Sequence record: SRR2962707_744
Reading direction: 5' to 3' (one strand)
Length of the DNA stretch: 34,959 bases
Shown here: one piece after another, positions 1-34,819 of the stretch
Layout: each line of letters opens with the position of its first letter
Position numbering within the stretch: the first letter of the stretch is position 1
Notes under the pieces: model-generated
Told to the model about the DNA's origin: nothing
The model's database searches: none
The model's input: only the letters and a program-made list of their open reading frames with translations
Position numbers and translations under genes: made by a program

Positions 1-897
1 GAACGGATCGTTCTTGTCTTTTGCTTTTGCGATATATTCTGGAATACGATCAACATGACCAATTTCAGAAAGCATATTGAGCGCAGCTTCGTTGGCGCCG
101 CCGTGGGCAGGGCCCCATAGGCAGGCAATACCAGCAGCAATACACGCAAATGGGTTTGCACCAGAAGAACCAGCCAAACGAACTGTTGATGTTGATGCGT
201 TTTGCTCATGGTCAGCGTGTAGAATGAAAATCTTGTCCATTGCGCGCGCAAGCACAGGATTGACCACATAGTCTTCGCAAGGAACAGCAAAACACATGCG
301 CAGGAAGTTCGACGCATAATCGAGGTTATTTTGCGGATAAACGAAAGGCTGACCCGTATGATATTTGAAAGCCATTGCGGCGATCGTTGGCATTTTCGCG
401 ATAAGGCGCAACGATGCGACCATGCGCTGATGCTCATCTGTAAAATCAGTTGAGTCATGATAGAAAGCCGACAATGCGCCAACTACGCCGCACATGACAG
501 CCATTGGGTGCGCATCACGTCTAAATCCGCTGAAGAATTTATTCATCTGCTCATGCACCATTGTGTGATGCGTTACGCGGTAATCAAAGTCAGTTTTCTG
601 CGCTTTTGTTGGCAATTCGCCGTAAAGAAGCAAATAACAAACTTCAAGAAAATCGCCATTATCTGCAAGCTGATCAATTGGATAGCCGCGGTGCAGCAAC
701 ACACCATTATCGCCGTCGATAAATGTAATTTCAGATTCGCAAGAAGCTGTAGACGTAAAACCGGGGTCTAAAGTGAAATGATCGGTTTGGGCATAAAGCT
801 TACTAATGTCGATAACATCGGGGCCAACCGTTCCGCTGCGCACAGCGAATTCATATTCCTTAGAGCCGATGCTCAATTTGGCGGTCTTATCTGTCAT
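1..897 (-). CDS. gltA: Citrate synthase (type II), 5' part; runs off the left edge
   Basis: Not in the ORF track; translated by hand from ATG at 897: [17 protein letters not shown]...[31 protein letters not shown]...[47 protein letters not shown]...KDKNDPF. AGGAG RBS just upstream. Confidence 0.97.
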
Positions 898-5932: not shown

Positions 5933-7243
5933 CTACACACCGAGCCTATCGCGCACAGCATACCACCACGAACCGATTGTGGAGTAGGGCACGCGGAACA
6001 TGCGCCCGCCCGGGAACGGATACCAGGGCACATTTTCAAACACATCAAAGCGAGTGAGGTCGCCGTCAATCGCTTCGCTTAAAATCCGGCCAAAAGTGTG
6101 CGAACCAGTGACACCATGGCCGCTATAGCCATGCGCAAAATAGGTATTCTTCCCAATACGGCCCATTTGCGGAACGCGGCTGAATGAAAGGGCGAAATTA
6201 CCGCTCCACGCATAATCGATTTTCACGCCTTTTAGCTGCGGGAAAACTTTGTCCATATTACTACGAAGTTTGGCTTCAATATCAGCGGGATCTGCGCCGC
6301 CATAGACCGTGCCGCCACCAAACAACATGCGTTTATCGCCGGATAAGCGGTAATAGTCCAAAATATATCGAATATCTTCAACGCAGGCATTTTGGGGAAT
6401 TAGAGAATGCGCAAGCTCTTCACCAAGCGGGGCAGTCGCCATCACTTGCGTTGAGACAGGCATAACGCGCCACGTTAGCGTTGGCACCACATGGCCAAGA
6501 TAGGCATTGCCGCAAAGCACCAATGTTTTGCATGTCATTTCGCCTTTGGCGGTTTTGACAACAGGCTTGGCAGCATTCGTATCCACATCAATTGCTGGTG
6601 ACATTTCATAGATCACACCGCCCAGTTTTTCAAAGGCAGCTGCTTCACCAAGCGCTAGATTGAGCGGATGCATATGACCGCCTGAATGGTCAATCAGGCC
6701 GCCTTCATAGAGATCAGAATTCACATGTTCGCGCAGTTGGTTTTTGTCCAACATTTCTTGATTTTTGATGCCGTAGCTGGCCCAAAGTTTCATGCGCTCT
6801 TCCAATTCGCCCATATGCGCTTTGGTCAAACCGGTAAAAATATTCTTCTCTTTGAGATCGCATTTAATGTCATAGGTTTTAATGCGTTCGCGGATGATTT
6901 CGCCGCCTTCTTGTACCAATCCGGCAACGAAGGTCGCTGTGTCTTGGCCGTAGCGTTTTTTGATTGTCTGAAGGCTTGCATTGAGGCCATTGACGATCTG
7001 ACCGCCATTGCGCCCAGAAGCGCCCCAGCCGACGCGTGCACCTTCTATGATCGCAACCTTGTAGCCTTTTTCTGCCAAGTGAAGGCCTGTTGATAGGCCG
7101 CTATAACCTGCGCCAATGATACATACATCAATCTCATTTTTGCCAACCAGCTCAGGCCTTTCCGGCGATGGATTTGCCGAAGCAGCGTAATAGCTTGTCG
7201 TATGACTACCGTCGCCGGCATAAGGATGTTGGTTCGCATTCAT
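5933..7243 (-). CDS. puuB: FAD-dependent gamma-glutamylputrescine oxidase-like protein
   Basis: HTTSYYAASAN, GAGYSG, GASGRNGGQ, GGHMHPLNLA, LDYYRL, GYSGHGV and C-terminal RDRLGV closely follow PuuB/OrdL as I recall it. Confidence 0.85.
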   Translation of the reverse strand: MNANQHPYAGDGSHTTSYYAASANPSPERPELVGKNEIDVCIIGAGYSGLSTGLHLAEKGYKVAIIEGARVGWGASGRNGGQIVNGLNASLQTIKKRYGQDTATFVAGLVQEGGEIIRERIKTYDIKCDLKEKNIFTGLTKAHMGELEERMKLWASYGIKNQEMLDKNQLREHVNSDLYEGGLIDHSGGHMHPLNLALGEAAAFEKLGGVIYEMSPAIDVDTNAAKPVVKTAKGEMTCKTLVLCGNAYLGHVVPTLTWRVMPVSTQVMATAPLGEELAHSLIPQNACVEDIRYILDYYRLSGDKRMLFGGGTVYGGADPADIEAKLRSNMDKVFPQLKGVKIDYAWSGNFALSFSRVPQMGRIGKNTYFAHGYSGHGVTGSHTFGRILSEAIDGDLTRFDVFENVPWYPFPGGRMFRVPYSTIGSWWYAVRDRLGV

Positions 7244-7458
7244 GGCAATACCTAAAAATAAGAGAGATATTCAAAATCTATTGGTAACGAAAAGCTGCCG
7301 CCACACGCTAAAGAGCCTGCAAGTCAGCCCAAATCACTATCGCTAATCTCTAACATATCGATGCTTTGTCGCAAGGCATAACGGCGGCGCTCTTCGACTA
7401 ACGCCATCAATGTTTTCTGAGAGACATTATATTTCTTTTCTAACAATCAACGGATAAC

Positions 7459-7485
7459 AAAAAGGGCAAACCTAAGTCTGCCCTT
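7459..7485 (-). terminator. Intrinsic terminator of the RTX-like gene
   Basis: Minus strand AAGGGCAGAC-TTAG-GTTTGCCCTT followed by further Ts, about 30 nt after the stop at 7514. Confidence 0.75.
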
Positions 7486-7513
7486 AATGCAATCCAATAC
7501 TGGAGGTTTTGAA

Positions 7514-9952
7514 TTAGGCCATTTCAGCCTGTGCTTCTGGAACGGGATGCGTATCCAAGACATCATTAACATTGTGCCAGACCTGATCATCATTGAAGAT
7601 AACGCTTTCAACATCGATCAAAATATCAGTGCCTTCAGGCTTGATCACTGTGATGTTGCCGTCTGTATTTGTGTAGAATGTATAATCATCTGCGCTGCCG
7701 TCATAACGCACGAAGTCATAACCGCCGCCGCCATTGATTGTGTCATTACCAGCAGAGCCCATTGCACCATCATTGCCGTCATTCAGGTTGATTAGATCAT
7801 CACCATCTGTGCCTGCAATAAAGTCCACGCATTCAATACCATCAATTGTGTTGACTGTCGGCGTTGTAACAACTGTTGACGCGTCATCGTCAGCACCAGT
7901 GTCGTCCGTAGATGTCGTATCGTCGGTAGCATCTTCAGATGAACCATAACCGGTCGTGTCAGTTGATGTGTCATCGCCAGCAGTAGAAGTTGTATCTTCT
8001 GTTGAAGTAACATCGTCTTCTTCGTCTGTAGAACCATCAACCGTGTCATCTGTTCCCGCAACGTCGCCATTATGGTTAGCCGTTAGATCCTCCATGCCAT
8101 ACCAAGAATTATCGCCAGTAAAGAAGACTGCTTCGATATTGTCGAGCGTGTCCACGCCTTCAGGCTTTGTCACAGTGACGGTACCATCTTCATTTTCTAC
8201 AAACGTGTAATCATCAACGGTGCCTGAATATTCAACATGGTCGAAGCCGTCACCGCCATCAATCATGTCATTGCCGGCAGAAGCGTCAACCGCGTCATTG
8301 CCACCGAGAAGGTTGATAAGGTCATCGCCCTGAGTACCCATCAAATGGTCGCCATATACAGTGCCGGTGATTACCCCGTCGGTTAGATCGCCAGCCGTCG
8401 CACTATCGTCGCCATTATGGCTGGTTGTAAGATCATCCATACCATACCAAGCGCCTTCATCTGTGAAGTAGATCGCTTCGATGTTAGCCAATGTATCGGT
8501 AGAACCATCAGGCTTCATGACAACAATAGTGCCGTCATCCTGCAAGTTAAATGAGAAATCTTGAACAGAGCCTGGATACTGAACGTGGTCAAAGCCTTCG
8601 CCGCCATCAATCATATCATTGCCAGTTGTACCGTTGATTTGGTCATCGCTGCTAAGTGCATCAATTACATCATCGCCATCTGTACCATCAAGGACATCTT
8701 TACAAGCGGTGCCGGTGATTGTGCCATCTGAAGAAGGTGCAGAACCATCTTCGCTGGCGCCGTAGGCGTTGATTGTTACCGTTTCAGTAACGTAACCACC
8801 TTTGCCGTCATCAACGGTGATATTGTAGCTCTGCGAGCCTGTGTCGCCTTCATCCAAAGGATCAAGCACTGAATCATTGATTGTGAATTTCCATTCAACA
8901 GAACCATCATCAGCAAGCACCGCAACAAAGTCGCCGTAATAATCATCGCCATTAGGCTCAACAGAAACAGTATAGCCTTCAATTGAGATTGCGTCGGCAT
9001 CAGAGACAGAAATTTTGCCTTCCGCAGTTACATCGGCTGTGCCTGCGCCTTCTGCGCCTGCAGCAATTTCGTAAACATCGCCGGAAAGTGTCGACCCATC
9101 AACATCAATAACTGGGGCCGCGTTAGTTGAAGTATCATCGCCTTCATCATCGCTGTCCGTGCCTACACCGTTCACGATGAATTCAGCTGTTGTGCTAGTT
9201 GCAGCACCGCTGGCGTCGACAACATCATAAGTAGCTGTGATTGTGCGTGTTTCGCCGTCGTTCAAATCAGCATACTGGCTAGGATCGATAGAAACTTCGC
9301 CGTTGCCAAGATCTGTATAAGCAACATCGATGCCTAGATCATCTTTGACTGTAAGGTTTTCGACACTGATCGCATCACCGTCTGGATCATACGCATTTAC
9401 AAGCAAATCTATTGTTTGAACGCCAGCATCTTCAGAAACTTCGCCGGCGAGGGCCGCGCCGATAACTGGGGCGCTATTAGTAGAGGCATTATCATCGTAA
9501 TCATCATCTGAACAACCGGGCTTTCCGCCACCATTGTGATGTTCGTGACCATGGCCACCAAATCCAAAGTTTAGATCAATACCAAGGCCGCCAACATGGG
9601 CGCCAACTGACAGGCCATGATCAACATTCGCATGAACATCAACTAGATGGGAAGCGTGTTCACCATCATGATCATGACGACCACCATGATTTTCTTCATG
9701 TCCGTGTTCGCCGTGACCGAAGTTTAGATCAATACCAAGACCAGCAACATGGGCGCCAACTGAGAGGCCATGATCAACATTCGCATGAAGGTTCACAAGT
9801 TGGAAACCATTATGGTGATTTCCTGAGTGATGCTCACCCACATTTTTCCAATTAAATAGATTGCCAATACTAAAGTTTAGACCGCCATTACGGCCAACTT
9901 CGTAGTTATTATGGTGGTTTGAGTTATCTGTATTACATGCGCCCTTAGACAT
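7514..9952 (-). CDS. Secreted Ca-binding RTX-like protein (His-rich N-terminus, cadherin/VCBS-like domains, three RTX-like modules); probable T1SS cargo
   Basis: GNDMIDGGEGFD-type nonapeptides; NxAPV...DPDGD and TVDDGKGG...VTI motifs; very acidic; no signal peptide; divergent from T1SS genes. Start ATG 9952 follows AGGGG (alternative start 9994). Confidence 0.85.
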   Translation of the reverse strand: MSKGACNTDNSNHHNNYEVGRNGGLNFSIGNLFNWKNVGEHHSGNHHNGFQLVNLHANVDHGLSVGAHVAGLGIDLNFGHGEHGHEENHGGRHDHDGEHASHLVDVHANVDHGLSVGAHVGGLGIDLNFGFGGHGHEHHNGGGKPGCSDDDYDDNASTNSAPVIGAALAGEVSEDAGVQTIDLLVNAYDPDGDAISVENLTVKDDLGIDVAYTDLGNGEVSIDPSQYADLNDGETRTITATYDVVDASGAATSTTAEFIVNGVGTDSDDEGDDTSTNAAPVIDVDGSTLSGDVYEIAAGAEGAGTADVTAEGKISVSDADAISIEGYTVSVEPNGDDYYGDFVAVLADDGSVEWKFTINDSVLDPLDEGDTGSQSYNITVDDGKGGYVTETVTINAYGASEDGSAPSSDGTITGTACKDVLDGTDGDDVIDALSSDDQINGTTGNDMIDGGEGFDHVQYPGSVQDFSFNLQDDGTIVVMKPDGSTDTLANIEAIYFTDEGAWYGMDDLTTSHNGDDSATAGDLTDGVITGTVYGDHLMGTQGDDLINLLGGNDAVDASAGNDMIDGGDGFDHVEYSGTVDDYTFVENEDGTVTVTKPEGVDTLDNIEAVFFTGDNSWYGMEDLTANHNGDVAGTDDTVDGSTDEEDDVTSTEDTTSTAGDDTSTDTTGYGSSEDATDDTTSTDDTGADDDASTVVTTPTVNTIDGIECVDFIAGTDGDDLINLNDGNDGAMGSAGNDTINGGGGYDFVRYDGSADDYTFYTNTDGNITVIKPEGTDILIDVESVIFNDDQVWHNVNDVLDTHPVPEAQAEMA
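9567..9789. repeat. Intragenic 70-bp direct repeat (9567-9636 and 9720-9789)
   Basis: 66/70 identical by manual alignment, period 153 bp (51 codons); encodes HANVDHGLSVGAHV[A/G]GLGIDLNF. Confidence 0.93.
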
Positions 9953-10330
9953 ATTTTTCCCCTGTAGTTCGGTGCGATCTTTTTCGCCGCTCATGTTTTA
10001 TTTTGATACAATTTGAATTTCGATGAAAATGCCTAGCATCACACCAGTTACGATCGGCTTAGAAAACGGGGTTAAAGGTTGCCTAATCTATCCGTTCAAA
10101 TTGAGCGAAACCAAGAAATGCACAGGCTTAGGTTGAATCAGACCTTTAGGCATTCGCGCTAAGCGATTCTTTCCTAAAGATAATTCATTAACCAGCTAAA
10201 GCGCCGGAATCTGGATATTTTGTGAACTTAAGCCCCAAAATTGGGCCCTCAAACAGGCGACTGAAAGGTATTTTTAACTATAATCGTGTTTTGTACCACC
10301 TTGAGAATATAGTGAGTCTTGGGGTGCTGC

Positions 10331-12385
10331 ATGTTTGAGTTTAGAGCGTTTGCGAAGAAGTATGGAGTTTATCTGCGCGCTCTGTTCTTGTTCTCCGTTA
10401 TCGGCAACATCCTCATACTGGCGCCTTCATTTCATATGCTGCAGGTCTATGACCGCGTGTTGGCATCAGGCAGCCGCACAACATTGCTCTACATCTTCTT
10501 GATCGCCGCGTTCGCTCTTATCGTATATGGCGTGTGTGAAGCCGTGCGTACGCGCCTTGCGCAGCGCTTAGCCGCAAAATACACGGTCGACGTATCAGAC
10601 AAGATGTTTGCTAAGTTCGCTCAATTTCCAAACTCATCTTCGGCTGCATCGCTCTATTTGCGCGAATATTCCACAATACGCTCATTCCTCAGCAGCCGAA
10701 TAATGGTCTCGCTTTTTGATGTGCCATTTATCCCGCTCTATATTGGGCTGCTATTTATGGTTCATTGGAGCATTGGCGTTCTTACGCTCATTGGCGTTGT
10801 TGTGATGACCTTCATCAGCCTTGCCAATGGTAAATTCGGCGAAGAAAGCCGATTAAAGAGCAGACAGGCTGAGAACGAAGCTATTGGCTTTGCGCAGTCT
10901 GTTTATTCGCGCGGCGAAGACGTGCGCTCGCTCGGCCTCTTGCCAAACTTCATCACACTATGGGGCAAACGCACAGCCGCATCACTCAATGCGTCTGACG
11001 GCTCTGCCGATCAATCAGCGACATTCTACGCGCTTGGCAAAGCATTCCGCCAAATCCTGCAGATTTCAATCATGGCTTGGGGCGCATTCCTCGTGCTTGA
11101 TGGCGATATGTCTGGCGGCATGATTTTCCTTTCATCTATGATTTCAGGCAAAGCGCTTGCGCCAGTTGAACAAGTAATTGGTGCAACTGAACAAATTGGT
11201 CGGGCTATTGCGGCATACCGCAAAATTGATGAATTGACGGGCGCGGAAAAAACACTGATGCGTCGTCCGGACTTGCCAACGCCGCAAGGATTGCTTGAGG
11301 CTAATGGTCTTATCTATGTGCCGGAAAACGCCAAAATGGATCAACGGATCGTTGACCGCGTGTCACTGCGTGCCGCGCCGGGCGAATTAACTGCAATTAT
11401 CGGTCCAATCGGATCTGGCAAATCAACATTCATTCGTATGATGGCAGGCGCTTTAACGCCGACTGTTGGTGAAATCACAATGGATGGTGCGCCAATCACA
11501 CAATGGTCAGGGTCACAATGGGGTCGCTCTATCGGCTATGTGAGCCAAGAAATTGAATTGTTCGCCGGAACTGTGGCCGAAAACATCGCACGTTTTGATA
11601 TCGGTGCGCCTGAAGATGCAGTTTACACCGCTGCTAAACGGGCAGGGGTTCATGACTTCATTTTGTCTCTGCCCGGCGGTTATCAAACACCCACCGGAAA
11701 CGGTCAATTCGTCTTTTCACCTGGTCAAAAGCAGCAAATTGCGATGGCCCGCGCGTTTTATGGCAGCCCCAAAATCCTGCTCCTTGATGAGCCGAATGCG
11801 TCACTCGATCAGGAAACTGAGATGCGTTTGCTCAACGCGCTTTCTGCTGCCAAGCAAGAAGGCTTGTCCATCATCGTCATTTCGCAGCGCGCAAGCATTT
11901 TTAAGATCGCAGATCACGTCCTGCGCATGGATGGCGGCCGTGGCAAAATGGTCGACAAGGATGACTTGATGCCAAAACAGTCATCACCAAATCCAATTTC
12001 AATTCCGCAGCAAGCAAGACCGGTTGCTAATACAAAAAATGCGGCGACCGCTAAAGCTGAAGGTTTCAAAGTCCTCGCTGAGAAAGCAAAACCACAAACA
12101 TCTCGGCCAACTGCTGTAGCAACCAAGCCTGTGATTGTGCCAAAACCTGCTGCCGCGCCAGTTGCAGTTCAGCCGTCCGCGCCTCAGCGAGAAGAAGTTA
12201 AACCGCAATTTTCTCAACCACGCCAAGTCGTTGAAGCGCCACCTGTTGTGACATCCATTCGCGCGCAGGTCGACAAGTTGCGCCAGGCCATTGAGATTTC
12301 TCAGCTCGAAGCGCGCGAAGGTTTCGATATGCTCGAAAAACAAAAAGATGAAGCCAATTCTAGAGTAAATGGAGGTGCTTCATGA
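10331..12385 (+). CDS. Type I secretion ABC permease/ATPase (PrtD/AprD-like) with C-terminal extension
   Basis: MLQVYDRVLASGS..TL, FDVPFIP, KALAPVEQ, Walker A GPIGSGKST, LFAGTVAENIARF, Walker B LLLDEPNASLD; no C39 domain. Start placed at ATG 10331. Confidence 0.93.
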   Translation: MFEFRAFAKKYGVYLRALFLFSVIGNILILAPSFHMLQVYDRVLASGSRTTLLYIFLIAAFALIVYGVCEAVRTRLAQRLAAKYTVDVSDKMFAKFAQFPNSSSAASLYLREYSTIRSFLSSRIMVSLFDVPFIPLYIGLLFMVHWSIGVLTLIGVVVMTFISLANGKFGEESRLKSRQAENEAIGFAQSVYSRGEDVRSLGLLPNFITLWGKRTAASLNASDGSADQSATFYALGKAFRQILQISIMAWGAFLVLDGDMSGGMIFLSSMISGKALAPVEQVIGATEQIGRAIAAYRKIDELTGAEKTLMRRPDLPTPQGLLEANGLIYVPENAKMDQRIVDRVSLRAAPGELTAIIGPIGSGKSTFIRMMAGALTPTVGEITMDGAPITQWSGSQWGRSIGYVSQEIELFAGTVAENIARFDIGAPEDAVYTAAKRAGVHDFILSLPGGYQTPTGNGQFVFSPGQKQQIAMARAFYGSPKILLLDEPNASLDQETEMRLLNALSAAKQEGLSIIVISQRASIFKIADHVLRMDGGRGKMVDKDDLMPKQSSPNPISIPQQARPVANTKNAATAKAEGFKVLAEKAKPQTSRPTAVATKPVIVPKPAAAPVAVQPSAPQREEVKPQFSQPRQVVEAPPVVTSIRAQVDKLRQAIEISQLEAREGFDMLEKQKDEANSRVNGGAS

Positions 12386-13743
12386 GTGCTAATAAAGCAA
12401 ATTGGGAAGCCCAAGGCAGTTGGTATGAAGACGTAAATGTTGGTGTTAGCGATGTCCTATCCACCGGCAAAAAAGTCCTTCTAATTGCTTTTGTCATTTT
12501 TGCGGCTTGGGCTTTGTTTGTGCCTTTGCAATCTGCAATTCATGCGAATGGAAGCATTGTCGCTATTGGTAAAAACCAGATACTTCAGCATCGCGCAGGC
12601 GGAATTGTACGCCAAATTTTGGCAAATGAAGGCGATCATGTTGATAAGGGTGATGTGCTTTATGTGCTTGAACCTGCAAACAATCAGGCAGAATTGACAA
12701 AGCTACGTGCAGATCAAGCTCGATTGCTAGCGATTAAACAGCGATTGGTCTCTGAAAAATCTTCAACGAGTTCTGCTCAGCCAGTTGATACAATAAAAAC
12801 ATTCGCTTTGCGCGCGGGCGACGATGTCCAAAGCACCGTATTGTCAAGCGAACTCTACGAGGAGCAGCGCTATGAATTTGAAGCTGGTAGAAGCGCTCTC
12901 GCTGCTCAAATCGATGGCCTTCAACAACGCCGCGAAGCATTACAGAGCCGCCGTGATGGATTGATTGAACGTCTGTCTGATCTTAAAAAGCAAGTCAGCA
13001 TCCTGCAAAGACAAATGGATAGCGCACGCGCGCTCGTTCGTGACGGTCATATATCGCAGGATCAAGCTTGGAATGTTGAAACGCAATTACTCGCGACACG
13101 TTCTGAACTTTCCCAAACGCAGGCAGAACGCAACTCTATCGAAAACGATATTCTTGAGGCTGCAGCAGAGATTGACCGCGTTCGCTCAATGGATCAGCGC
13201 CAAACTTCTGAAACATTGACGACCGTTCTGGCTGACTTGTCTCGCATTACGGATGAAATCAAAGCGGTCGAATTAGCGCTCAATGAGACGCAAATACGCG
13301 CGCCAGAATCTGGCACTTTGATCCATCCTTCTGTCACAACCATCGGCGGCGTAATTAAACCCGGTGATGCTTTGGCCGAAATTGTACCGACCAACTCTGC
13401 GCTCGAAATTCGTGTGAAAGTGCTACCGCAAGATATTGGCCGCGTCCGTGTCGGTCAGGATGCAGAAGTAAAGGTCACTGCTTTGAACCCGCGTCTTTAC
13501 AGCAAGATTACCGGTAAGGTGAACTTCGTCGCAGCAGACACGACAACAGACCCGCGCACGCAAATGAAGTATTTTGATGTGGCTGTTACGCTCGACGATA
13601 ATCTCGCCGATGACGCGGGCAATCCGCTGCTATCACCTGGCATGACGGGTGACGCGTTCCTCAAAGGCAATTCACGGACATTTGCGTCGTATCTTATCCA
13701 GCCTCTTACTGAGAGCTTCAGCACCGCATTTTCGGAGTTCTAA
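12382..13743 (+). CDS. HlyD-family type I secretion periplasmic adaptor
   Basis: N-terminal TM, LQHRAGGIV..I...EGD.V.KGD, long coiled coil, IRAPESG, GGVIKPG..LAEIVP, LSPGM, YLIQPL; ATGA overlap with the ABC gene. Confidence 0.95.
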   Translation: MSANKANWEAQGSWYEDVNVGVSDVLSTGKKVLLIAFVIFAAWALFVPLQSAIHANGSIVAIGKNQILQHRAGGIVRQILANEGDHVDKGDVLYVLEPANNQAELTKLRADQARLLAIKQRLVSEKSSTSSAQPVDTIKTFALRAGDDVQSTVLSSELYEEQRYEFEAGRSALAAQIDGLQQRREALQSRRDGLIERLSDLKKQVSILQRQMDSARALVRDGHISQDQAWNVETQLLATRSELSQTQAERNSIENDILEAAAEIDRVRSMDQRQTSETLTTVLADLSRITDEIKAVELALNETQIRAPESGTLIHPSVTTIGGVIKPGDALAEIVPTNSALEIRVKVLPQDIGRVRVGQDAEVKVTALNPRLYSKITGKVNFVAADTTTDPRTQMKYFDVAVTLDDNLADDAGNPLLSPGMTGDAFLKGNSRTFASYLIQPLTESFSTAFSEF

Positions 13744-13745
13744 GT

Positions 13746-15218
13746 ATGAAAATGGCAACAAGATATCTAACAATCGCCATTGCTATTGGTCTATCAAGCT
13801 CAGTAGCGTTTGCTGATAACGAACCCATTCATTTGCGCGGGACAGTAGAAAATGACGCTGCACAGCAGCAGATGGAATTACGGTCAACGACCTATGGCAT
13901 GAGCCGTAGCCAGAAAAATAATGGCAATTGCCGGTTTTTCTTTTCTAAATGCGCACAGGCAAAAATGGCTCAACCGGTGCAGCGCCAAAGATACACACAA
14001 ATAGTCGAAAACATTGGTTTGCGCGGTGCGGTTCGCGAAGCAATTTCTACCAACCCATTGGCAAAGGCTGCGCATCAAGACACGATTGCGGCGCAGGCGG
14101 CGAAGTGGCGTTCAATTGTCGCTTATGCGCCAATTATTACTGGCTCGATTGATGTCAATCGCAGCTACAATAAAAGCTCTTCAGCTGTCGATACTTATGA
14201 AAATGCCAAAACCGCTACGATATCAGTCTCAATGCCAATCTTTACATCTGGACGGTTGTTTTTCGGCGCCCGCAAAGCACAAGCCGCTGAAATGGCAACG
14301 CGTTATCAAGAACTTTCAACGCAGAACCAAATTGCTGGACGTACAATCAACGCCTATCTGCAGTTCTATTATGCAAACCGCTCAAGTGCAGTTTTACAAA
14401 CACTTGTGAGCGATACCGAGAGCCTTCTTGTATCGGTACGCGCGCGCCGCAATGGCGGCTTTTCGTCGGACGCAGATGTTGCGCAAGTCGTAGGACAATT
14501 GGCAAATTATCGCGCACAGCTAAATTCTATGCGCAGCCAAACAAACACATCACAAGAACAGCTAGATTCGCTCGTAGGCCATCATGTGTCTGTCAGTTCC
14601 ATACAAGAACAAATGCAAGATCTGCCGATGCTTGGCCTTGATGAACTTCTCAATTCTGCGATGACGCGAAATGCCGATCTGATGGCCGCAACACATAGAT
14701 CAAGAGAAGCCGAATTCTCGAAGAATTCTGTTTTAGGAAGTTATCTACCTCAGGTGAATTTATCAGGCGATTACAGCCGCGATCTTGAAGGTGCAACCAG
14801 CCGCGACGACGATAGCTGGCGCATTGGCGTTCGCCTCACAATGCCCATCGTCAATCTTGCCGCAGCGCCTGATGTTGTCGCTGCAAATGCGCAGTCAAAA
14901 GCTGCGTATTATCGCGCACAAGACACGCGCAAACAGGTCGAATTAAGCATCCGCACATCCTACGAACAAACAATAACATCCGCAGATAACTTCGATTTGG
15001 CTATCGAAAACGTAACAGCAACTGCGCGGGTTACACAGGCCAAAAAAGAGCAGTTTAAACGCGGTGTTATTTCTCTTGATCGCTTGTTAGAGCAACGCGC
15101 AGTTCAGGCACGCGCAGAGATGGACAAAGTCAAAGTTCAGACAGAACTTTATAGCGCTAAGACAAATCTACTTATTCAGTCTGGCCGATTGAATGAAGTA
15201 ACGATGCAATATCAATAA
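13746..15218 (+). CDS. TolC-family outer membrane channel
   Basis: Signal peptide ending AFA; two OEP-like repeats (AISTNP, SMPIFTSG; YLPQVNLSG, GVRLTMPI, FKRGVISLDRLL); third gene of the T1SS operon. Confidence 0.88.
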   Translation: MKMATRYLTIAIAIGLSSSVAFADNEPIHLRGTVENDAAQQQMELRSTTYGMSRSQKNNGNCRFFFSKCAQAKMAQPVQRQRYTQIVENIGLRGAVREAISTNPLAKAAHQDTIAAQAAKWRSIVAYAPIITGSIDVNRSYNKSSSAVDTYENAKTATISVSMPIFTSGRLFFGARKAQAAEMATRYQELSTQNQIAGRTINAYLQFYYANRSSAVLQTLVSDTESLLVSVRARRNGGFSSDADVAQVVGQLANYRAQLNSMRSQTNTSQEQLDSLVGHHVSVSSIQEQMQDLPMLGLDELLNSAMTRNADLMAATHRSREAEFSKNSVLGSYLPQVNLSGDYSRDLEGATSRDDDSWRIGVRLTMPIVNLAAAPDVVAANAQSKAAYYRAQDTRKQVELSIRTSYEQTITSADNFDLAIENVTATARVTQAKKEQFKRGVISLDRLLEQRAVQARAEMDKVKVQTELYSAKTNLLIQSGRLNEVTMQYQ

Positions 15219-33185: not shown

Positions 33186-34322
33186 TTAAGCCCCCAACCG
33201 CTTACGAGCGTTATCAGCAAGGTGTTCCATGGTCGCGGGTTTCAGATTAGTCAGTCTATACGCATCGAGTGAGGAAATACGCTTTTTCTCAACGGCTCCG
33301 CCAAGCATCTTAGGTAGTAAGTAACCAAAACGAGCAATTTGCGCTCCATAACCACCGCCACCGCTGGCTGGCTCGGCCTCTTCTTCTTCTATAAAAATTG
33401 GAATCTTTTTTGGAAGAGCGGCAGACCATCGTGTATAAAAATCTATATCCAATTCCAGCTCTGCAACACGGATTGCCGCGGCCTGCTTACTCGCGCCGAA
33501 CAACTTAGAAAGGTAATTAGCAATCAGCCGCGGCGATCGATCTTTCACCGCATTGTAAGAGTCAATAAATGGATCTTCAGGCATCATAATTGATGCTGCT
33601 ATATTATTGCAGAAACGCTCAGTGGAGTTTTTTAGAATGCCAGGATCTGAAACACCTGAACTACCGAGCAGGACATGAACCGATTCATGCATTAGCGTGA
33701 ATAACTTAGTCGCAGGCCGTTGAAATTTTGTGTTTATGAATATAGTGGGAAACTTGCCTGCTTCAGCGGAACAAAACCCTCTAAAACCATCCTGAACTTT
33801 ATCCGTTAGGACGATTACACCTGCATTCTCAAGCGCAACTCGCGTATTTTTAAATGTCTCAATCGGGTCAATTGTGTTATCTTTACGAAGTACAGGGCTA
33901 TAGAGCGCACCCAAGTGTTTTAATGCAGACTTCCGGTCTTTGATGGTAACCTTACCAACATTTTCATAAGGACAATTTTCCTCAAATATATCATCTGACA
34001 AATAACTCATTATTGAACGCACACGTTCAACTTTGTGTAATCCAGACCCTGTCAAAACCGCGGGGCTATTTCTGACAGTACGAAAATCAGGTATACTTTC
34101 AGCAACACTTACTTTTTCGAAAAATAAATACTGAACAGGAACAGACAGTGCGGAAGCAAGTGCGAAGATCCGCGCCTTACTTACTTTAGTAGGTTCGCCT
34201 TCCAATTGTTCTAAGATAGTCTGGTCGATGTTAGTTTCATCTGCCAAATTAGATAAAGAGAATTGCCGAGCGATTCTCAAGTTTTTTAACGTCTTAGAAT
34301 TTGGGGTTAATTTTAATGGCAT
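33186..34322 (-). CDS. XRE-HTH plus ImmA/IrrE-family zinc metallopeptidase
   Basis: N-terminal HTH (LR.ARQFSLSNLA...LASALSVP..YLF), PDFRT linker, FRGF, IFIN, FTLMHESVH (HExxH), ERFCNNIAASIMMP, FGASKQAAAIR. Start placed at ATG 34322. Confidence 0.9.
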   Translation of the reverse strand: MPLKLTPNSKTLKNLRIARQFSLSNLADETNIDQTILEQLEGEPTKVSKARIFALASALSVPVQYLFFEKVSVAESIPDFRTVRNSPAVLTGSGLHKVERVRSIMSYLSDDIFEENCPYENVGKVTIKDRKSALKHLGALYSPVLRKDNTIDPIETFKNTRVALENAGVIVLTDKVQDGFRGFCSAEAGKFPTIFINTKFQRPATKLFTLMHESVHVLLGSSGVSDPGILKNSTERFCNNIAASIMMPEDPFIDSYNAVKDRSPRLIANYLSKLFGASKQAAAIRVAELELDIDFYTRWSAALPKKIPIFIEEEEAEPASGGGGYGAQIARFGYLLPKMLGGAVEKKRISSLDAYRLTNLKPATMEHLADNARKRLGA

Positions 34323-34819
34323 GTACCGCAATCGCAAACGAAGTATGTTACAGATTAAACGACTTCTCTGGACTGCTCCAATTGGCTTTTGGCTTAAATC
34401 TTGCCCTGCCTATATTTCAAGAACTGGCCGTAATCCGCCGCACGCCACTTTATAGAAGGTTAAAGTCAATAGAGTCGCTATCAGGAGCTAGAACATTTGC
34501 TAATAAGAACGGTGAGTCAACTCTAAAGGCAGATATCGCCGAGATTAAGCGCCAACTATTAATATCAGACGATAAAATGAAGGGATGGGTAACAGTTTGC
34601 GCAATTGCAACGTTTTTGTTCGCGCTATCGGCTCTAGGTTTTTCTTATTTTGCAATCTTTGATCATGACTGCATGAGCGCTTGGATACCTACATCAACAT
34701 CCATCTTCCACTTCCTACCATTGCCAATCGCTCTGGCACTTCTTCACTACGTCAGTGGCAAGATATATGCCGACACAAAAACTAAGATTGATGCTGCTCA
34801 AAAGAAGTGCTTTCGGTAG
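34316..34819 (+). CDS. Hypothetical membrane protein (2-3 hydrophobic segments)
   Basis: Long open frame filling the gap to the tRNA; hydrophobic stretches LLQLAFGLNLALPIF, WVTVCAIATFLFALSALGFSYFAIF, IFHFLPLPIALALL. Start uncertain. Confidence 0.6.
   Translation: MACTAIANEVCYRLNDFSGLLQLAFGLNLALPIFQELAVIRRTPLYRRLKSIESLSGARTFANKNGESTLKADIAEIKRQLLISDDKMKGWVTVCAIATFLFALSALGFSYFAIFDHDCMSAWIPTSTSIFHFLPLPIALALLHYVSGKIYADTKTKIDAAQKKCFR

Follow-up and report, generated by a model that had tools for sequence, protein, structure and literature searches.

A histidine-rich, duplicated N-terminal head without detectable relatives on a putative type I-secreted RTX protein

The 34,959 nucleotide (nt) stretch of sequence record SRR2962707_744, referred to here in its full length as the window, carries on its minus strand a gene for an acidic protein of 812 amino acids (aa), next to the genes of a type I secretion system (T1SS). 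The body of this protein, here called the cargo, resembles that of other T1SS substrates. Its N-terminus is a histidine-rich head that contains duplicated units and is without detectable relatives, and that stands where the only close relative found carries two DUF642 domains. The features of the locus, the evidence on the head, and the readings that this evidence would permit are described below.

The cargo gene and its secretion operon

The cargo open reading frame extends over 7514..9994 on the minus strand and offers two starts, ATG 9952 and ATG 9994, the latter giving a protein of 826 aa. The start is likely to be ATG 9952, since AGGGGA precedes it and there is no Shine-Dalgarno-like site upstream of ATG 9994 (Table 1). 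The protein is very acidic, with 169 Asp+Glu against 15 Lys+Arg, and no hydrophobic stretch is seen on inspection of its first 40 aa. Two candidate features were rejected by inspection of the sequence only: a lipoprotein signal at the N-terminus, where MSKGAC is without a hydrophobic region, and a beta-hairpin pore stem, for which strands of 7–8 residues are too short.

The preliminary description of this DNA had placed cadherin/VCBS-like and RTX modules, with no catalytic domain, in a cargo lying head-to-head with genes for an ATP-binding cassette (ABC) protein, HlyD and TolC, and both observations are confirmed by Pfam and NCBIfam. The match to Cadherin_5 is above its cut-off (29.3 bits, cut-off 26.5) and that to Big_9 slightly below (23.1, cut-off 23.6). 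HemolysinCabind is found in 3 stretches at 3.7e-09, or in 5 when the C-terminal 396 aa are the query, the GGxGxD nonapeptide repeats of RTX-type T1SS substrates are present, and no catalytic family is matched. The second beta-rich domain (aa 279–398) has no Pfam assignment in the cargo, and NCBIfam gives partial matches only on the body, to the C-terminal RTX regions of SapA, PueA/B and RTX hemolysins. In an AlphaFold model that drew on an alignment of 14 sequences, the per-residue confidence (pLDDT) is 80–94 both in the cadherin-like domain and in all three RTX modules. Foldseek relates the body model to RTX beta-rolls (family I.3 lipase at 1.8e-07, RTX blocks of the adenylate cyclase toxin) and also to an RTX adhesin repeat and cadherins, with E values ranging from 1.8e-07 to 1e-03.

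The C-terminal tail, which is partially conserved in the relative P0002 described below, is a putative type I secretion signal from its position only. Because it has RTX modules, a cadherin-like domain, marked acidity and no N-terminal hydrophobic signal, the cargo apart from its head is of an ordinary T1SS type, and it appears to belong both to the RTX/T1SS cargo class and to the cadherin-like domain families.

The operon divergent from the cargo gene (10319–15218) places an ABC protein, a membrane-fusion protein and an outer-membrane factor beside the cargo, as is characteristic of RTX-type T1SS substrates, and the cargo would be secreted by this neighbouring ABC/HlyD/TolC system. The ABC protein matches TIGR01842 with 492 bits, slightly below the cut-off of 510, in an alignment that starts at residue 19, and it is therefore without an N-terminal peptidase-like domain. 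The match of the TolC-family channel to TIGR01844 (127.5 bits) is below the cut-off of 225. A scan of genome contigs with the ABC protein returned 5 loci, all distant, at 27–31%. The ABC protein extends about 140 residues past its ATPase domain (11963–12385, plus strand) in a Pro/Ala/Lys/Gln-rich segment followed by a helical-looking end, and this extension matches no Pfam family.

Table 1. Coordinates of the cargo gene, its segments and the adjacent features in the window
Feature	Residues (aa)	Nucleotides	Strand	Details
Cargo gene		7514..9952	minus	812 aa from ATG at 9952; acidic
Terminator-like hairpin and T run		7462..7485	minus	29 nt past the cargo stop codon
Shine-Dalgarno-like AGGGGA		9958..9963	minus	6 nt 5' of ATG 9952; read from sequence
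Divergent intergenic region, cargo gene / secretion operon		9953..10318
His-rich head	1-158	9479..9952	minus	24 His, 20 Asp+Glu, 5 Lys+Arg
N-terminal piece	1-16		minus	short
Partial third unit, EVGRNGGLNFSI	17-28	9869..9904	minus	resembles the ...GLGIDLNFG core end; by eye
Loop 1	29-52	9797..9868	minus	4 His (EHHSGNHH)
Core 1, VNLHANVDHGLSVGAHVAGLGIDLNFG	53-79	9716..9796	minus	pattern match, DNA repeat
Loop 2	80-103	9644..9715	minus	8 His (HGEHGHEENHGGRHDHDGEHASHL)
Core 2, VDVHANVDHGLSVGAHVGGLGIDLNFG	104-130	9563..9643	minus	pattern match, DNA repeat
Loop 3	131-147	9512..9562	minus	4 His (FGGHGHEHHNGGGKPGC)
Acidic linker SDDDYDDNAST, head-body joint	148-158	9479..9511	minus
Cadherin-like / bacterial Ig domain	159-260	9173..9478	minus	Cadherin_5 7.5e-07, Big_9 1.4e-04; pLDDT 74-90
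Second beta-rich domain	279-398	8759..9118	minus	conserved in P0002; all-beta, pLDDT 38-73
RTX module 1	405-512	8417..8740	minus	HemolysinCabind; pLDDT 83-91; Foldseek RTX beta-rolls
RTX module 2	521-628	8069..8392	minus	Pfam, model, Foldseek
Acidic Thr/Asp/Ser-rich linker	629-692	7877..8068	minus	pLDDT 26-41
RTX module 3 and C-terminal tail (putative secretion signal)	693-812	7517..7876	minus
PrtD-type ABC permease/ATPase, type I secretion		10319..12385	plus	TIGR01842; Pfam ABC_membrane, ABC_tran
HlyD-family periplasmic adaptor		12382..13743	plus	TIGR01843 299 bits, above cut-off
TolC-family outer-membrane channel		13746..15218	plus	Pfam OEP 1.7e-43

Composition and anatomy of the head

The preliminary description had counted 24 His in the first 140 residues, and this count is exact (9533–9952 correspond to aa 1–140). 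Beside them are 27 Gly and 19 Asn, while the remaining 673 residues contain 7 His (Fisher p = 7e-14 for the head against the rest of the cargo). Compared with the 24 other proteins of the window, in which His makes up 1.77% of residues and does not exceed 9 in any stretch of 140 aa, the enrichment has a binomial p = 7e-17. The clusters that had been reported, HHSGNHH, HGEHGHEENHGGRHDHDGEH and HGHEHH, are all found in the translation, and the motif V.[LV]HANVDHGLSVGAHV.GLGIDLNFG is indeed present in two copies, at aa 53–79 and 104–130.

At the DNA level there is a direct repeat of 126 nt, 79% identical and with a spacing of 153 nt, for which Tandem Repeats Finder returned 0 rows. The unit of the head is 51 aa long: an amphipathic, beta-like core of 27 aa leads into a loop of His, Gly, Asp and Glu. 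There are two full units and a partial third, the whole being bracketed by Cys6 and Cys147. Each core contains alternating hydrophobic/polar runs (V.L.A.V, L.V.A.V, L.I.L.F), parted by Gly-containing turns, and three conserved His. The linker that joins head and body (aa 148–158) resembles DDTSTNAAPVI, the linker ahead of the second body domain.

AlphaFold, given the head alone as a single sequence, returned a mean pLDDT of 41.7 with hairpins only at 65–78 and 116–129. Short beta-strands are placed in the cores, at low confidence, both in this run and in that of the whole cargo, and some beta structure in the head is probable. A complex prediction with four copies of aa 14–150 (score 0.02, mark 0.32) speaks neither for nor against self-association.

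Coding status and selection

Codon usage supports the annotated frame in every segment of the cargo, and over the head its log-odds are +41 bits in this frame, the two alternative frames scoring −3 and −168. Core 1 and core 2 differ at 10 of 81 nt, five codons having changed synonymously and three of the 27 residues having been replaced (dN, non-synonymous, 0.052; dS, synonymous, 0.436; dN/dS 0.12 by Nei-Gojobori). Sets of ten random substitutions altered three core residues or fewer in 26 of 5000 trials. The loops, compared ungapped, have a dN/dS of 0.69, and all three are His-rich.

The frame-favouring codon usage and the synonymous excess between the cores demonstrate that the head is coding and that its duplication is not recent. 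The cores are under purifying selection, and what selection has preserved is the core peptide together with the His-rich character of the loops.

Searches for relatives of the head

The domain had not been recognised when the DNA was first described, and no relative of it was found in any library or collection searched. In Pfam, with E values allowed up to 10, the only match to the head is DUF5808 at E 0.12. The NCBIfam matches of the whole cargo lie in aa 425–520 only, with none in the head, and the best match in PHROGs has an E value of 0.37. The PDB sequences gave 0 hits with the single sequence and 0 with a profile of two 38-aa head units, and there was no usable match in the ESM Atlas. 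A phmmer search of 1.84 billion protein representatives with the head (160 aa) found 0 at E up to 0.001, and in 5.8 billion word-indexed clusters aa 1–160 had 1087 candidates, of which 0 were significant. Contig scans gave 58 pattern matches in genomes and 125 in metagenomes, 0 being confirmed in either, and a metagenome scan with aa 159–400 of the body found 5 loci, all distant or short. Nor is there any profile match between the head and the known metal-binding families of Pfam and NCBIfam or the PDB sequences.

By sequence comparison the head is a domain without a detectable relative, belonging to no family tested, although in libraries this large a protein with nothing but the 27-residue core in common would fall below visibility. 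An exact look-up of four window proteins found 0 of 4 in a collection of 15 billion, so that the organism is unsampled there and the description of the head as an orphan has to be tempered. In the literature covered, which leaves out subscription journals and supplements, no report of a T1SS cargo with a His-rich head was found. The only match to the combination of histidine-rich, type I secretion and RTX was to Ehrlichia tandem-repeat proteins (PMC3417381).

A close relative with a different head

With the whole cargo as query, 7999 candidates were scored, of which 25 had an E value of 1e-05 or below. The sole close relative among the 25 is P0002, a protein of 965 aa from the assembly of a public run, which is 74% identical to the cargo over cargo aa 159–810 (BLASTP), the likeness starting at NSAP(V/I)IG. 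Like the cargo, P0002 has a cadherin-like domain, a second beta domain, three RTX modules and a C-terminal tail. Unlike the cargo, its first 317 residues are two DUF642 domains, at aa 6–154 and 164–312 by a local hidden Markov model (HMM), the second of which also matches DUF642 in Pfam at 3.6e-08.

Since P0002 bears two DUF642 domains in the place of the head, the His-rich head is a swapped module. The view that it is a separate functional module is strengthened both by this swap and by the purifying selection on the cores. The stalk carries either a widespread DUF642 module or a unique His-rich head, and by parsimony the His-rich head would therefore be the derived state.

The wide occurrence of DUF642 is seen in a search with the P0002 head. 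Of 8000 candidates scored, 65 were found to match, for the most part RTX proteins and other secreted proteins with several domains. The few among them that have names come from Alphaproteobacteria (Bradyrhizobium, Pelagimonas, Tropicibacter, Hyphomonadaceae). In the collected set, 68 of 89 proteins have between 1 and 5 DUF642-like domains, the first of which starts within the N-terminal 40 residues in 8 of the 68. DUF642 probably has a fold like that of carbohydrate-binding modules. The domain also occurs in cell-wall proteins of plants (PMC9966272).

A faint likeness of the pattern G.L..WKN.G......H.HNG.Q...L occurs at equivalent positions in the head and in both DUF642 copies of P0002. That the head is a remnant of DUF642 is nevertheless unsupported: Smith-Waterman comparison gives z 2.1–2.3, equalled by 9–17 of 300 shuffles, with a local HMM of 126 DUF642-like domains the head obtains −1.0 bits (E 0.089, counted as one comparison), and the hhalign probability is 0.1%. 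DUF642 is also absent from the Pfam matches of the head at E up to 10.

Two further observations concern the bodies of the two proteins. RTX modules 1 and 3 of the cargo each have a Cys at their corresponding first position, at aa 417 (8702–8704, in TGTACKDV) and aa 708 (7829–7831, in DGIECVDF), both on the minus strand. Both are kept in P0002, and they could form a long-range disulfide. The linker at aa 629–692 is Asp/Thr/Ser-rich in the cargo and Gly/Thr/Lys/Ser-rich in P0002, its sequence being free to vary while its length stays similar.

Variants in natural populations

Words from positions 9300–10100 of the window are present in 7 of the 8 public runs listed, which come from five studies, the eighth having next to none. 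The runs are labelled as aquatic, ballast-water and seawater metagenomes, with one labelled with an organism, and none of those listed with window words is an RNA run. The highest share of window words, 0.70, is in run X1, which may be the sample that this DNA came from. Contigs from four runs were aligned to 7400–10400, and the parts left uncovered were not interpreted.

In run X3, from another study, a contig of 204 nt covers 9520–9723 with one difference. It spans loop 2, and the two-unit form therefore exists independently of the present record. In X1, a contig of 700 nt joins 9611 to 9765 and skips 153 nt exactly, which keeps the frame, leaves one hybrid unit and removes loop 2. At the junction 25 letters fit both sides, this being the longest identical run between the cores. 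As this run is shorter than the words from which the X1 contigs were assembled, presumably 31 letters, we infer that the one-unit form is a real recombinant allele and not a collapsed assembly. Contigs of about 93–96% DNA identity in run X4, which belongs to another study, cover 9064–9536 and 9861–10119 and, among the contigs listed, overlap the head region at its edges only.

The contigs of X1 over the head and upstream (9119–10248) differ from the window by 0–1 letters, and those over the body by 3–8% (9/119, 27/925 and 15/400). This contrast could reflect a mixture of strains or a recombination mosaic.

Genomic setting

The window is otherwise a housekeeping block, with citrate synthase, GltX, ComEC and LexA followed by MoeA, MoaC, TrpC and TrpD, and continuing with a PpiD-like protein, TpiA, SecG, PyrG, a branched-chain amino-acid ABC importer, MscS and a Na/Ca exchanger. 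The interval between LexA and MoeA is occupied by an FAD oxidoreductase, the cargo gene and the three divergent secretion genes, and this region between lexA and moeA (5933–15218) resembles an inserted island. At the far end of the window, 33186–34337 on the minus strand encodes a protein of 383 aa with an IrrE/ImmA-like Peptidase_M78 domain.

The promoter region between the cargo gene and the operon contains an inverted repeat, GCTTAGGTTGAAT / ATTCGCGCTAAGC, at 10126–10164, with 13-nt arms that are 77% complementary, and this may be the binding site of a regulator. A further GGCTTAG is present near 10056 in the same region (10055–10167).

A metal-dependent head as the preferred reading

The best explanation of the cargo is a protein of the adhesin or matrix type, non-enzymatic and stabilised by calcium, which is exported by type I secretion and has a head of about 150 residues. 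Given what the head is composed of, its swap against DUF642 in P0002, the selection on its cores and the adhesin- or matrix-type body, the reading preferred here is that the head is a metal-dependent binding or bridging end, for transition metals, of a calcium-stabilised adhesin or matrix stalk. This is held tentatively, with a probability of about 0.35. The composition of the head is that of His-rich metal-binding segments, a class defined by composition and not by homology.

RTX proteins are exported by T1SS with the C-terminus first, and their RTX modules fold on extracellular calcium. The cargo would leave in this way through the adjacent T1SS, the head being the last part out. Duplication of the 51-aa unit has built a lineage-specific head, whose three-strand cores would pack together as a small scaffold of beta structure. 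The three loops, with the three His of each core, would then present a dense cluster of imidazoles that could chelate divalent transition metals (Zn, Ni, Cu or Co) outside the cell. Binding of metal may fold or stiffen the head, and the metal-bound head may form bridges with further heads, with polymers that carry metal or with the surfaces of minerals. It would in this way be the end that gives the cargo its specificity, as the DUF642 pair would be in P0002.

Several observations weigh against the proposal of a metal-dependent head. In the AlphaFold model of the whole cargo, where the body is well modelled, the pLDDT of the head is 26–39, and the head may be disordered. Such values would arise either from disorder without the ligand or from a head that cannot be modelled for want of homologues. 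The argument for metal binding is compositional, as was that of the preliminary description for a metal scavenger or a metal-cross-linked matrix protein, with no homologue of known function behind it, and an orphan sequence could be fast-evolving filler. The X1 contig of 700 nt, at a depth of 4.8, has a deletion of 1 nt at 9864 that would break the frame near residue 30. At such a depth this may be an error, but a real deletion would mean that some cells manage without the head. Genes for metal uptake, for metal sensing or of the TonB type were not found in the 35-kb window, and Zur-like and Fur box consensus sequences have 0 matches there, which is weak evidence since the alphaproteobacterial regulators differ.

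Comparison with known systems

The cargo may work most like the Rap lectins and small RTX adhesin-type proteins. The Rap proteins of Rhizobium leguminosarum (Ra/CHDL cadherin-like lectins) are, like the cargo, alphaproteobacterial, non-enzymatic and calcium-binding, with a cadherin-like domain, and they are reported to be exported by PrsDE, a T1SS of the PrtD/PrsD type, and to act in the biofilm matrix (PMC5061743, PMC9298526). The passages covered mention neither a His-rich head nor three RTX modules, and the comparison is by description only. The RTX adhesins and beta-roll proteins (LapA, an Aeromonas RTX adhesin, family I.3 lipases, serralysins and CyaA) have the RTX body folds and T1SS export in common with the cargo, but no His-rich head has been described in them. 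The cargo is much smaller than the RTX adhesins, and it has no enzyme or toxin domain and no LapG or LapD partners in the window.

For the head, His-rich flexible segments that handle Zn have been described in ZnuA, ZinT and ZepA, where the ZnuA loop and the N-termini of ZinT and ZepA mix His clusters with Asp, Glu and Gly as the head does, and where ZepA resembles the cargo in carrying its His-rich segment on a secreted protein, in its case a zinc-handling one (PMC10957091). These segments are brief, forming tails or loops of folded and conserved proteins with metal sites, whereas in the head the loops alternate with beta-like cores. There is no homology between them and the head, the export is by T1SS and not by Sec/PEP-CTERM, and there is no zinc-related neighbourhood in the window. 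Further His-rich metal-handling segments are those of Hpn, HypB and UreE.

A metal-bridged adhesive head has its model in the G5 repeats of the staphylococcal surface proteins Aap/SasG, whose Zn2+-dependent dimerisation is reported to hold cells together (PMC3110253). This is analogy only, as Aap/SasG are Gram-positive, anchored to the cell wall and of a different fold, with no sequence relation to the cargo.

Alternative explanations

An unlikely alternative, which nevertheless has to be considered seriously, is that the head is filler, a fast-evolving, low-complexity remnant made by slippage or unequal crossing-over after an ancestral head was lost, with no specific ligand and tolerated as a disordered spacer. 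Such a head may be on its way to loss. This would agree with an orphan status in all searches, with the pLDDT of the head in the whole-cargo model, with the highly diverged loops, and with the copy-number variant and possible frameshift in one X1 contig. The core dN/dS of 0.12 at a dS of 0.44 argues otherwise, as the peptide sequence has therefore been long maintained. His-richness has also been kept in three independently diverging loops, the 153-nt variant is in frame, and the X4 relatives (93–96%), reaching 9536 and starting again at 9861, overlap only the edges of the head among the contigs listed.

A more elaborate version of the metal-dependent head is more doubtful than this. The head would in that case be a newly evolved metal-dependent beta-repeat fold on a marine alphaproteobacterial matrix protein, a 'zinc zipper' or surface metal trap, its units tuned by unequal crossing-over, which replaced a DUF642 head and maybe arose from its remnant.

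It is distinctly unlikely that the cargo is a soluble metallophore or buffer, released so that its head takes up scarce Zn, Ni, Co or Cu, or excess metal, and returns metal to the cell. The T1SS hemophore HasA is exported by systems of the PrtD class that lack an N-terminal accessory domain, and HasA would be the analogue of the head in a scavenger. The His-rich composition would serve this as well as it serves metal bridging, and ZepA is a precedent for a secreted zinc-handling protein with a His-rich N-terminus (PMC10957091). Against this, no receptor, TonB-dependent transporter, importer of the Znu or Nik type or regulator of the Zur or Fur type was found in the window, and the Zur and Fur box consensus sequences are without matches there. 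A body of the adhesin type, in a protein of 812 aa, would be costly for a diffusible scavenger, and the same body with DUF642 domains in P0002 points to binding and not to nutrient capture.

Functional amyloids or beta-solenoids built of pseudo-repeats, such as CsgA, FapC and HET-s, provide the basis for a third possibility, that the head is a self-assembling beta module in which the cores stack between molecules, with protonation of His as a pH switch and metal not essential. The cores do have a strict hydrophobic/polar alternation and three short strands each, Gly and Asn are conserved where the strands turn, the cores have been maintained as the loops drifted, and forms with one and with two units exist in nature. 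This is improbable, as there are merely two and a half units, no assembly genes of the curli (Csg) or Fap type were found in the window, no amyloid family is among the Pfam, NCBIfam and PDB sequence matches, and the structure predictions contain no confident stacked model.

A head that folds, with cytoplasmic metal, before export ends, so that it jams in TolC and keeps the cargo on the surface in the manner of LapA, is very improbable. As T1SS cargo exits C-terminus first, a folded N-terminal module would indeed exit last, and LapA is held in this way in a TolC-like pore (10.1101/198937). However, no genes of the LapG or LapD type were found among the 24 open reading frames of the window that were scanned. 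The sole Ala-Ala near the N-terminus that might correspond to the di-alanine site of LapG is at aa 166–167 (IGAALAG) and is not kept in P0002 (IGDALIS). The cargo is also small against the known RTX adhesins, and its ABC protein is of the PrtD type. Finally, that the head is an untranslated leader and the true start lies near residue 159, as the 1-nt deletion in one X1 contig and the want of a homologue might suggest, is scarcely credible given that aa 131–165 contain no Met, that a strong Shine-Dalgarno-like site is present at 9958–9963, that codon usage supports the frame of the head, and that the cores have a synonymous excess and the indel variant is in frame.

Significance

The RTX and cadherin-like proteins exported by T1SS are usually described by their stalks and by known ligand-binding domains. 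Here one stalk bears two unrelated heads in close relatives, the cargo and P0002, and one of the two, a His-packed module of repeats, is without a relative among some two billion protein representatives. With its duplication, the selection on its cores, the drift of its loops, and the coexistence of one- and two-unit alleles, this head is also a case in which the birth and tuning of a domain may be followed. Should the head bind metals, it would offer a natural metal-binding scaffold of compact size, and would represent a protein-based means of binding, bridging or collecting trace metals at the surface of a marine bacterium.

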